This document shows, piece after piece, positions 9,001 through 15,468 of a stretch of DNA of 15,468 nucleotides; position 1 is the first letter of the stretch, and every line of letters begins with the position of its first letter. The position numbers are program-made. The stretch is from Bdellovibrionales bacterium (GTDB taxonomy: Bacteria; Bdellovibrionota; Bdellovibrionia; Bdellovibrionales; UBA1609). Location: NCBI GenBank assembly GCA_050246815.1, contig JBFWVI010000064.1, positions 1 to 15,468 of the forward strand, written 5' to 3'.

Positions 9001-12000
9001 GCCTGGTAAGTGTTGCCTGCGGAATCCCGCACGGCTTGCAGCTGCGCACTGCCCTGCCAATCTATTTGCGCCACGATTAAGTTGCCCGCTGTATTGGGCG
9101 AGGCAAAGCTGGCCGAAGACTGGTTGGTGCTGCGATCAAAAAGCGCATACTGAGATTGGATCTGAGCGATCACGGGTGGCGTCGACGGGGGCTGGTACAC
9201 GATATCATCTAAACCGACGCCTGCATTTCGGTAAGGATCGGGCAGAGTGGTGGTTCGGTGCAGGTAAATTGAATTTGAAGGCTTGGTGAAATTGGTGCGG
9301 ACCAAATGCATCTTGCGATCAGCCGGAATACGCTGGGTTACACTTTGTCCTTGGTCATCGTAAATTCTCAGCTCCACATCGCCCTTCGAGGCAAAAGCCT
9401 TCAAACTGAGCAAAATTTTAGGACCACCCGAAAAGTTAAAACCGGTGTCGCCCGTGGTGCTTGAGCTATTCACGGCAAAGTTACTCGTGCTGGCATCAAA
9501 GGGCAAACTCCAGCCCCAAATCCCGGGCGTAAACTCGATCCCCTTATAAAGACCTTCTAGTAAATTGGCAGTGCTTGGCACCCCGACTGCGGGATTGTCA
9601 AAATCCACCAAAACCGCGCCCGGTGGTGGCTCGTCCACCTTTGGCGCCTCAAATCGATTCTCGCGGAAAACTTGGCCACACTGCTCAGGCAACGAAGGAA
9701 TCATCCCTTTCACACCCGAGAAGGCATCAAAACTATTTTTGTCGTAGGCGGCTTTCACCGCTGCCGAATCGGGACTCAAACCTTGAATCGCACCTAGGCA
9801 GGCTTGTAAGTACCCCTCATTCGCCCTGACAGCCGTGGCTTCTTCGGCATCACAAAGATTGTAATAGGGGTTGAGCACCTTTTCAGGCACGCCCAGATTA
9901 TTGATTAGGCTGGTGATGGAGACCCCGCCACGACAGGCTTCCAACGACAAGTCCGGGTGGGCCCGCGTTAAAACATCACAAGTGGCATCTAAAATCTTTT
10001 TGCAGCCTTCGGACGGCTTGGGATTACCGGTGTTGGTGCCCTGCAAAACCGTGCTCGTCTGCGTTTTTTTCGCATCACCCGAATTTCCTAAAATTCCGCA
10101 GGCATTGTAGGCCGCTAGCAAAACCAGAACTACACTCAGCATGGTGATATGCCATATCTGTCTCATGCGCTTTCCCCTGTTTTCTTCTTAATTTCTTCGG
10201 TGAGCGGAAAAAACTGAAAACCCAACTGGTAAACCTGGGCCGCTCCCGCCTCCTGCGATGACATTTCAATAATTTCTTTGCGCAGCTGCTGAATCAGCTC
10301 TTTGATCTTTTTGATCCCACCCTCCGTGACGGTGATAGTCACGGCTGAAATATCGCGCTTTTCACGCGGAAAACGATCAATAGAGTCTCCCGCCTTATTT
10401 AACATCTCTTTGTGATACAAACGAATCAGCGGCGAAATCACTTCGTTGGGGGTTTCGACATTGCGGTCCGTTTGCTGAAGCCGCCCGCTTGCATCCCTGC
10501 GGATCAAACCCAACTTTTCCAATTCGACCAAGGCCTTTTTTGCCTCGACGGCCGTGATAGCGGGGTTGAGCTGTTTGGCGATCCATTCGGGGTCCTCTTG
10601 AAAACCTTCGAAACTCACCAGCTCTCGAATGGGCACAAAGTACCACTGCGCGTAGTAATTGTATTCGGACTCTTTTAAAGGATAGATCTTTTTAAAAACT
10701 TTCGAACGCAACAACTGTTCAGTATGGATTTTTTTCTCTTCGCTCGAGGTTGCCTGGTTTAGAAGAACAAGATGATGAAAGAACAAAGCTTCATCTTTTT
10801 TAAGCTTGAGAGCCTTGGCGATCTTTTCGATACTTTCTGACGCCAAGTTGCGCTGACCATCAATCACCAGCTTCAAAAAATTGGGTGATTGAAACCCTGC
10901 AATCCTTGAAAAGTATCGATACGAGAACTTCGCGTCATTTTGCTTTGACGAAAGGTACACGTCGCGCAAAAAATCGCGATAATTGTCGTATTCAAAAACA
11001 CTTTTTAAAGTGGGTGTGTTCAGCAAAATTTTGCCCGCTCCCCGTTCTCAAATTGAGAACCAAAATTGCCATCCGCGTATCTCTTTGAAGTTTATCACAA
11101 AGCCGATGAAAATGGGCCCCATGTATACTTTTAGAATACGCTTTTTATTTTTGAATACGAAGTTTATCCAAACAATTTAGTTAGTTAAGGTTATAGTTAA
11201 AGGGCGACAAGATAATAAAACTTATCTTTTAGTATACGGTCGCCCGGCACGTTGTCTCAGAATAAAACAAGACATTGGACTTGGGGTTAGGGGGAAGTAT
11301 GGCCGCACGTCAATTGCGTCTGATGGGCAGTCTTTTGGCGCTCATGGGCGTTATGTTGTTCTTTAATAATTGTAGTCAAAGTGGCTTTGACGGTGTTCAA
11401 AGCCTTAACCAGGGATCCTCTCAATCTCCACCTCCACCCGCGACAAATGAGTGGAACGTCGGCACCCTGACCTTTATTGAGGGTGGCGGCACAACAATCG
11501 ATTTAGCCAACACCCTCCCACCTGAAATTAAAAGAAATGGAACATTTGCAGTGGACCCTAGCGGAGCCAACCTACCCCCCGGTATGAATTTGTCCGCTAG
11601 CGGTCTACTTTCTGTGAGCACGGCAGCCGCGGGCGACACCATCGGGGTCGTCTTCAACTACACGGAACCCTAAAGGAGACGCCATGAAATCGATTTACTT
11701 TAAGACCGCCCTCGCCCTAGCCGCAACTTTGAACCTCGGTGATTCCGCTTGGGCAGCAAAAATTCTTTCGAATAAAGTTAACATTTCAGTGCGCTCGACG
11801 CCCGTCGGCGCGCAAGACTTCGCCGCACGCTGCGCAGCTCCCGGAGTGGTGAAGTGCGTGGGCTTTGACCAAGCCTCAGATATTGCCGGAACCTTCGGCG
11901 AAAATTCGGGCATTTTCTCCGGAAGTAACAATGCCCCCCAATTGGATACGGCGGTTCGGGCCTCTGGTAATAGCTCACTTCGCTTTACGGTCACCACCTC

Positions 12001-15000: not shown

Positions 15001-15468
15001 TACGGCGGCGGCAACGTCGCCTCGAATAGACTTTGGCGCCTCAGCTCCGATGCCAGCATCATCGCCATGCCCAACGTGCCCACTGGTAAGGCTGTGGGCA
15101 TCCAATCCGGCAACTTGGTCAACGATCCCGTGACGGGAAATTTTCTTTTGCTAAGCGGTCGCGAGCTGTGGGAGCTCAATCCAGACGGAGCGGGCAAGTG
15201 GACTCAGCAAACGGGATCTCGCGTGCCACCCGCCGATGCGGCTTTCCCTGGGCCAGGCGCGCTTTCGGACTTAGATGGCGTCGTTTCATGCGCCATTCCT
15301 GAATATGGTGTTGTGGTGTACATCAAGCAAAAACTGCAAACAGGGGGCAATGTTTATCTGTATAAACACGCCTAAACGCGGATCACTTTTGCGCTTCGAC
15401 CAAAGTTTTTAGGTTTTGAATACCGGCGCTGAACTGATCACCGACCATCTTTTCGCAATCGATGAAGA

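Follow-up and report, generated by a model that had tools for sequence, protein, structure and literature searches.

In the genome of a Bdellovibrionales bacterium (3.4 Mb, 149 contigs), a 14-residue tag at the extreme ends of 27 proteins and a small set of anchor proteins that terminate in a truncated immunoglobulin-like (Ig) domain probably constitute a two-part, peg-and-socket targeting system, in which a He_PIG/cadherin-like domain is split between separate polypeptides and the tag would dock on the anchor domain by complementing its missing G strand, a reading to which we assign a probability of roughly 0.65. In the proposed mechanism, the domain is split between strands F and G. Strands A' to F would form the socket, with which a small membrane-tethered protein ends after a linker or a stalk of Ig repeats. 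Strand G, the tag, would be the peg, borne at one end of many different enzymes as a portable peptide; once bound, it would complete the fold and hold its enzyme outside the cytoplasm. Docking could be reached by two routes: enzymes with a Sec signal would be exported, expose their tag and dock on Sec-lipoprotein sockets, as would proteins tagged at the C-terminus, and leaderless enzymes, once folded in the cytoplasm, would bind a twin-arginine socket and be co-exported by Tat as hitchhikers. Judging from sequence, remodelling or breakdown of extracellular polysaccharide is the probable task of the cargo. What we infer from the observations below is physical binding, the groove used for it, Tat co-export, the final location and the substrates.

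A five-gene operon with two anchors and their candidate cargoes

The window analysed here is the whole of contig C64 (15,468 nucleotides). Positions 11299-15375 hold five same-strand genes separated by gaps of only 5-13 bases, encoding in order a 124-residue lipoprotein, a 371-residue secreted protein, a 123-residue twin-arginine protein and two leaderless proteins of about 360 residues each:

11299..11673, + strand: lipoprotein anchor, 124 residues; signal with lipobox (Cys25), S/P/G-rich linker, G-strand-less He_PIG-like domain at 11443-11670
11684..12799, + strand: secreted protein with signal and tag, 371 residues, 8 Cys, family unassigned; probable enzyme domain after the tag; homologs chiefly untagged lipoproteins
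11756..11797, + strand: 14-residue tag of the preceding protein, directly past the signal-peptide cleavage site; profile score 25.6, leave-one-out 20.0
12813..13184, + strand: twin-arginine (RR) anchor, 123 residues; S-N-R-R-I-F-L at residues 7-13, no lipobox; G-strand-less domain at 12930-13163
13196..14284, + strand: leaderless tagged Kelch-like beta-propeller, 362 residues; tag at 13199-13240
14290..15375, + strand: second leaderless tagged Kelch-like beta-propeller, start at 14290 or 14296; tag at 14299-14340

The lipoprotein anchor comes directly before the Sec-type cargo, and the RR anchor before the two leaderless cargoes, which are 61% identical to each other. In-frame stops lie 13 and 8 codons upstream of the tag in the two leaderless genes, so that the 13196 gene has no space for a signal peptide. 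A sequence search of the PDB with the 11684 protein gave no match.

The tag is confined to protein termini

The tag was delineated with a 14-column profile, seeded with six pattern matches and iterated over 7,535 stop-to-stop frames of at least 100 residues, each scanned over its full length. Twenty-six frames score at least 22; the next matches score 19.5 and 17.1, neither in a terminal-tag context, and the best score in 20 shuffled proteomes ranged from 14.5 to 21.0, never reaching 22. Leave-one-out scores run from 14.4 to 34.3, with four of the 26 below 17. Despite whole-protein scanning all 26 matches are terminal: 18 follow a signal peptide, six follow the initiator Met directly and two end at the stop codon. 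With a further protein whose tag has a one-residue deletion (C112:4077), the total comes to 27, distributed as 19 after a signal peptide, six after the start codon and two at the extreme C-terminus. The tag is real. The six leaderless starts are each preceded by purine-rich stretches.

The survey's finding that prompted this analysis had counted 24 tags at mature N-termini, the number recovered here (18 plus 6), and had described the tag as always N-terminal and its 24 carriers as unrelated. Both descriptions need revision: two secreted beta-helix-like proteins (C16:3768 and C7:80102) carry the tag at the C-terminus, and the 27 carriers fall into 14 BLAST groups. The accompanying view that the carriers are glycan-active needs softening. 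Cargo types comprise Kelch-like propellers, beta-helices and apiosidase-like, PcRGLX-, PL14-, heparinase- and pectate-lyase-like proteins, mostly with weak scores; in Pfam, the apiosidase-like and PcRGLX N-terminal matches exceed their cut-offs, and those to PL14, heparinase II/III and PelZ fall below. These lyase- and glycosidase-like matches cover some carriers, 11 of the 23 scanned lack a Pfam match at E<=0.01, and activity on glycans is accordingly presumptive. Set against the PDB, the tag profile shows a likeness to the G strand of an Ig domain and also to FN3 strand A, neither of them significant (E>=0.05).

The anchor domain stops before its last strand

Five home-genome proteins end in a 76-residue He_PIG/cadherin-like domain, as many as the survey had listed: three are lipoproteins, one of which bears the domain on a stalk of Ig repeats, and two have an RR motif. 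Contigs C64 and C14 each pair a lipoprotein anchor with an RR anchor. The sequence match to He_PIG (PF05345) had been placed at positions 8-62 of 96, and the 11299 protein does align there, at only E=0.19 and 12.6 bits; the 12813 protein gives no match, and both window anchors are below the Pfam gathering cut-off of 24 bits. Among 98 anchor-family relatives, 66 match He_PIG at E<=0.1, the best at 5.2e-6. A homolog search with the single anchor sequence recovered only itself, and a profile search was needed to reach the wider family, with 213 clusters at E<=1e-10 and 352 at 1e-3. Of the best 150 relatives, 143 terminate within five residues of the domain end, that is, after strand F, and 148 have a single socket, the other two having two domains; the corresponding figures had been 236 clusters at E<1e-10 and 122 of 150 ending near the domain end, so that the pattern stands and the counts shift.

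The predicted structure of the 11299 anchor domain is confident (pLDDT 90.8), with residues 1-17 confident yet unpaired. Fold comparison returns cadherin- and long-Rib-like domains at Z 5-6, in line with the Z of 5.8 obtained before, including 8egx (Z 6.0, rmsd 2.7, 75 aligned) and 9avk (Z 5.5, rmsd 2.6, 70 aligned), values under 8 being modest, and an Atlas comparison gives a TM of about 0.7 to He_PIG clusters. Foldseek searches with the anchor returned nothing at E<=0.001, and PDB sequence searches with anchor profiles returned chance matches only. The modelled domain has the beta-sandwich topology of the He_PIG/cadherin-like Ig fold and covers the first ~80 of ~100 template residues (1suh, 1-83 of 104; 2a4c, 4-80 of 99; 6s5w, 1170-1249); the RibL domain spans 1165-1268 (excerpts of PMC6936399). 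Homology and fold alignment together support an anchor domain without a C-terminal G strand, and since the sheet order in He_PIG is given as A'-G-F-C in the same excerpts, the strand missing from the anchors is an inner one.

Sockets and tags are kept on separate proteins: among 150 anchor relatives only two score at least 9 on the tag profile, both internally and neither convincing, and cargoes lack the socket domain apart from two fusions, P0116 and P0141, in which domain and enzyme are joined with no tag strand between them.

How the tag could meet the domain

A predicted complex between the 12813 RR anchor and residues 2-32 of the 14290 protein scores 0.33 against 0.03 for the best of three controls, with contacts agreeing at 77% or more and a partner pLDDT of at least 56. 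Of the 157 solved pairs, 116 reach the mark for such scores, as do 2 of the 215 mismatched ones; since passes at or below 0.60 include both mismatches and just 18 of the 157 solved pairs, this score is weak. A natural tandem, P0051 (probably the P0321 of the survey), had been put forward as evidence because a tag-like strand follows the domain, and it does not serve as such. Both of its domains fold, yet the tag-like strands score 1.1-1.4 on the tag profile and are modelled at pLDDT <50 without being inserted, in a prediction whose alignment covered the second domain alone and left these strands outside. Judging from strand ranges in the model, A/A' of the second domain appears to pair directly with F, and this domain may therefore be complete without G; such closed A'-F pairing could represent either the empty-socket state or a complete, atrophied fold.

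The latter possibility underlies a different mode of binding, in which the domain is atrophied but already complete and the tag, instead of filling the G slot, would line up along an exposed edge, leaving tethering and hitchhiking unchanged. The confident model of the anchor domain alone is compatible with it, as are the closed pairing suggested in one of three modelled domains, the strand-less fusions, and Rib domains, which are known to lose strands stably (PMC6936399, as excerpted). Edge binding is nonetheless unlikely in our estimate: the G strand is an inner one in the A'-G-F-C sheet, 143 of 150 relatives stop exactly after F, and in length and pattern the tag matches a G strand. We thus favour complementation while keeping it conditional. 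Of the earlier proposal that the tag completes the domain, the missing G strand and the tag-anchor link find support, and complementation itself stays provisional given the weak complex model and the unsupportive tandem.

Tags and anchors co-occur in two phyla

Within the home order, anchors are present in 6 of 384 genomes (5 of 301 in the earlier count). Tagged genes flank the anchors in G080, G304, G248 and G313, with about 13 tagged genes in G304. Searched for the tag at E<=0.01, 371 order genomes gave six with a match, namely the home genome (G000), G304, G248, G083 and two (G098 and G266) in which the matching frames of 56 and 29 residues were taken as chance. G083, 80% complete, has a true signal-plus-tag gene and no anchor that we could find. 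A phylum-wide sample yielded anchors in 1 of 301 genomes, the home genome itself, with a search model that also spanned the signal region and could have overlooked some.

The same anchor-tag arrangement is seen in a betaproteobacterial MAG. Pattern-based locus searches were insensitive, with a single locus from the genome collection and another from the metagenome collection. In the family of this MAG, 27 of 232 genomes have anchors. Eighteen of these also have tagged genes, three have anchor operons that run off contig ends and six, which form a group, have lone anchors (G759, G764, G767, G769, G771 and G775), with no tag nearby or genome-wide at E<=0.01, two having been rechecked at E<=2; the best matches in G767 and G775, apparently frames antisense to a different gene, were taken as chance. 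The tag model matches 17 family genomes at E<=0.01, 16 of them anchor-bearing and one among the 205 without anchors (G712, in which 1.3 kb separates the tagged gene from the end of its contig), a comparison that is partly circular as the model was trained on these loci. With a profile trained on the home genome alone, 17 of 35 betaproteobacterial anchor frames have a tag in the 3 kb downstream. The family genomes are related, and their co-occurrence counts are not independent events. In three anchor-less genomes the enzyme homologs are all untagged and signal-bearing, and 9 of 13 scanned betaproteobacterial loci sit in XrtA/PEP-CTERM-type exopolysaccharide clusters.

The tag replaces an anchor or signal of the enzyme's own

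Homologs of two window proteins were classed by simple patterns and a tag threshold of 4.5 applied next to the enzyme core only, a scheme in which some lipoproteins count as plain signal peptides. For the leaderless 14290 protein (n=120), 28 homologs are leaderless with a tag, one has signal and tag, 37 have a lipoprotein, Sec or Tat-like signal of their own without a tag, and 54 have partial or missing N-termini. For the 11684 protein (n=120), the respective classes are 11 with signal and tag, 44 with a lipoprotein signal, 35 with another signal and 30 partial. Tag and lipid anchor occur together in none of the 240. RR motifs are found in 10 of 36 signal-bearing untagged homologs in the leaderless family, as against 2 of 78 in the 11684 family. 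A quick tree of the 14290 family (enzyme cores, 110 of the 120 rows) requires 15 changes of the tag label, at least seven of them forced by strong branches, and tagged rows adjoin Tat-signal rows in four clades with support of 90-99.

Untagged homologs with a plain signal often end in a PxxPxxLxV tail (15 in the 11684 family, and four other genes), and for the enzyme family with this FN3 strand-A-like C-terminal tail a small FN3 protein without strand A lies just upstream in two of the five regions fetched. One enzyme family thus has three alternatives: its own lipid anchor, an FN3 tail or the tag.

On the strength of co-occurrence in two phyla and of the tag standing in for the lipid anchor or Tat signal of homologs, a functional link between tag and anchor is highly probable. 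Alternatively, the tag would be a sorting or secretion signal for another machine, such as an outer-membrane exporter, and the small domain a co-encoded, non-binding accessory or carbohydrate-binding lipoprotein. Tag-less anchors, one or two tagged genomes without a detected anchor, the excess of cargo over sockets in the home genome (27 cargoes to five single-socket anchors) and the weak complex score all agree with a separate machine. We hold it to be somewhat less probable still than edge binding, as the loci read from the two phyla share no other gene that recurs with the tags, the tag is used at both ends of proteins, whether or not a signal peptide is present, and its replacement of lipid anchors fits tethering better than release.

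Leaderless cargo pairs with twin-arginine anchors

The export of leaderless carriers, left unexplained by the survey, is probably accounted for by the Tat-type anchors. By a loose pattern, RR plus lipobox is found in 33 of 35 betaproteobacterial anchor frames, and the betaproteobacterial tags found all begin within seven residues of a start codon. In the home order, leaderless tags occur in all four genomes with an RR anchor, and none were seen in the two genomes without a visible RR anchor, both of them fragmented. RR motifs are present by pattern in 87 of 150 anchor relatives and by eye in two of the five home-genome anchors; the Pfam TAT_signal model did not match the 12813 anchor and matched 3 of 98 family rows, most of which were cut to the domain. 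At the sequence level, the RR anchors show the hallmarks of Tat substrates, a twin-arginine motif before a weakly hydrophobic stretch in a genome with TatC (E=2.6e-72), and the genomic distribution shows leaderless tags pairing with RR anchors, from which we infer that the latter are generic Tat carriers. Partners without a signal are co-exported by Tat in HybOC and PaoABC (PMC4273604), and FdnGH is a further hitchhiker case (PMC6085387); the resemblance consists of a signal-less protein and a twin-arginine partner, seen here as a genomic pairing only. Those known hitchhikers belong as fixed subunits to a single cofactor enzyme; the carrier proposed here would be small, generic and open to any tagged protein. 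The chances are even that the tag is in this sense a new protein-targeting signal, by which folded proteins without a signal of their own are carried through Tat by a split-Ig carrier and stay tethered to the envelope.

If instead leaderless tagged proteins remained in the cytoplasm, the tag could be a self-association strand or the role-less remnant of a lost Ig domain. Many database homologs do lack an N-extension, as in 36 of the 120 homologs of the 14290 enzyme, although the cores of two of these are the same as those of signal-bearing rows, a sign of mis-called starts; some of the others may be truly cytoplasmic. Conservation of the tag at exact protein ends in 14 sequence groups and two phyla, the Tat signals on sister rows of tagged enzymes and the near absence of the tag from anchor-less genomes (1 of 205) make a cytoplasmic role improbable, the least credible of the alternatives considered.

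Relation to known systems

In chaperone-usher pili and other fibres, the gap left by the missing G strand of an Ig-like domain is filled by a strand from the end of a second protein; in cohesin-dockerin cellulosomes, many glycan-active enzymes share one portable module through which they dock on partners anchored in the envelope. The system proposed here shares with donor-strand complementation a G-less Ig-like domain and a candidate terminal donor strand on another protein. It differs in that the donor resides on unrelated enzymes rather than on a pilin, the socket protein has no donor and forms no polymer, and the fold is He_PIG/cadherin-like; the loci read showed neither chaperone nor usher genes. 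Donor and groove are united on one polymerising subunit in chaperone-usher and type V pili, which come with usher and chaperone or protease genes, unlike in either anchors or cargoes. With cellulosomes it has in common one portable module on many enzymes and envelope-anchored partners, but the folds are others, a 14-residue strand takes the place of the Ca-binding dockerin, there is one socket instead of a multi-socket scaffoldin, and the setting is a diderm envelope with lipoprotein and Tat anchors. Pfam scans of anchors, carriers and relatives gave no match to cohesin or dockerin, and the cellulosome-like display first suggested is overstated for anchors with one socket each (two domains in 2 of 150).

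With He_PIG (PF05345) and long Rib domains the anchors share the fold and a weak sequence match over strands A' to F, and they depart from both in stopping before G; in the excerpted description, Rib atrophy removes D/E and not G (PMC6936399). Microbial GAIN/MAIN domains likewise have an envelope anchor that holds enzyme or adhesion domains by non-covalent strand contact, with the difference that MAIN is a single polypeptide cut by autoproteolysis (10.64898/2026.05.12.724683) and the halves here are separate, interchangeable genes. A related variant is the FN3 tail of the same Kelch-like enzyme family, where the strand is A and C-terminal; here it is He_PIG strand G and mostly N-terminal, and this position makes leaderless cargo and Tat carriers possible, unlike for FN3 tails. 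Each ingredient (donor strands, hitchhiking, dockerins) has a precedent, and the combination appears to be new: in searches of an open-access library we found no paper that joins them.

If the model is correct, a short portable peptide would act as both export ticket and membrane tether for unrelated enzymes, many 'cytoplasmic hypothetical' proteins would be reassigned to the envelope, at least 213 unannotated lipoprotein clusters would gain a job, and the anchor family would be tied to XrtA/PEP-CTERM exopolysaccharide clusters. Taken with the FN3 tails, split-domain pegs would be a general bacterial way to mount interchangeable enzymes. Being small (76 plus 14 residues), the socket and tag could also serve as a natural non-covalent tag/catcher pair.

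Sequences and genes upstream of the operon

Promoter and terminator scans gave results at chance level. A palindrome at 11046 was considered as an operator common to tagged genes and rejected, its 43 genomic copies including only five within 1.5 kb of tagged genes. Two genes lie further upstream on the opposite strand:

10163..11026, - strand: TIGR02147/DUF4423 gene, divergent from the operon
8568..10166, - strand: exported lipoprotein-like partner of the TIGR02147 gene, assigned from sequence

Genome-wide, 5 of the 17 TIGR02147/DUF4423 genes sit within 1.5 kb of tagged genes.

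Genomic context of the tagged genes

Upstream of the leaderless tagged beta-propeller enzyme (14290..15375, plus strand), the window holds two features:

8568-11026, TIGR02147/DUF4423 gene and its exported partner, divergent from or beside tagged genes
11046-11058, palindrome TCTCA-N3-TGAGA, found in 42 other places in the home genome

Genes of the TIGR02147/DUF4423 type lie divergent from or adjoining tagged genes in the window, on four further contigs of the home genome (C7, C16, C112 and C13) and at locus L036; counted over the whole home genome, 5 of 17 such genes have a tagged gene within 1.5 kb. 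In the home genome, four of these five TIGR02147/DUF4423 genes are followed by a protein that is exported and bears the motif T-x-x-G-N-P. No paper in the open-access literature searched uses the term. The palindrome totals 43 copies genome-wide and does not specifically mark tagged genes; it is a candidate site of a global regulator. On contig C44 (1-13792), a gene containing TPR repeats and a LamG-type protein are surrounded by a cluster of seven tagged genes.

Variants of socket and enzyme

In the leaderless P0051 (174 aa), a weak strand resembling the tag stands ahead of each of the two socket domains; the protein could be a chain extender, a role to which its predicted model lends no support. 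Long anchors of the home order (L002:609-2318, L031, L035) place several Ig-repeat stalk domains N-terminal to the socket, and a betaproteobacterial one (L113:816-2375) places CBM6 and FN3 domains ahead of it. In each of six related genomes (L123, L124, L126-L129), a single socket on a Tat lipoprotein is encoded close to a gene resembling that of O-acetylhomoserine sulfhydrylase, and a search of the same six found no tagged partner.

The Tat-signal homologs of the 14290 enzyme (P0158, P0168, P0170, P0200, P0214, P0224, P0232, P0246, P0259, P0266 and P0273) all have, behind the signal, a short segment of the form Cys-Pro-Pro-Pro...Cys. Kelch-like enzymes at four loci (L226:6455-8106, L227:13572-15286, L223, L224) end in a tail resembling FN3 strand A, and directly upstream of two of them lie FN3 proteins without strand A.
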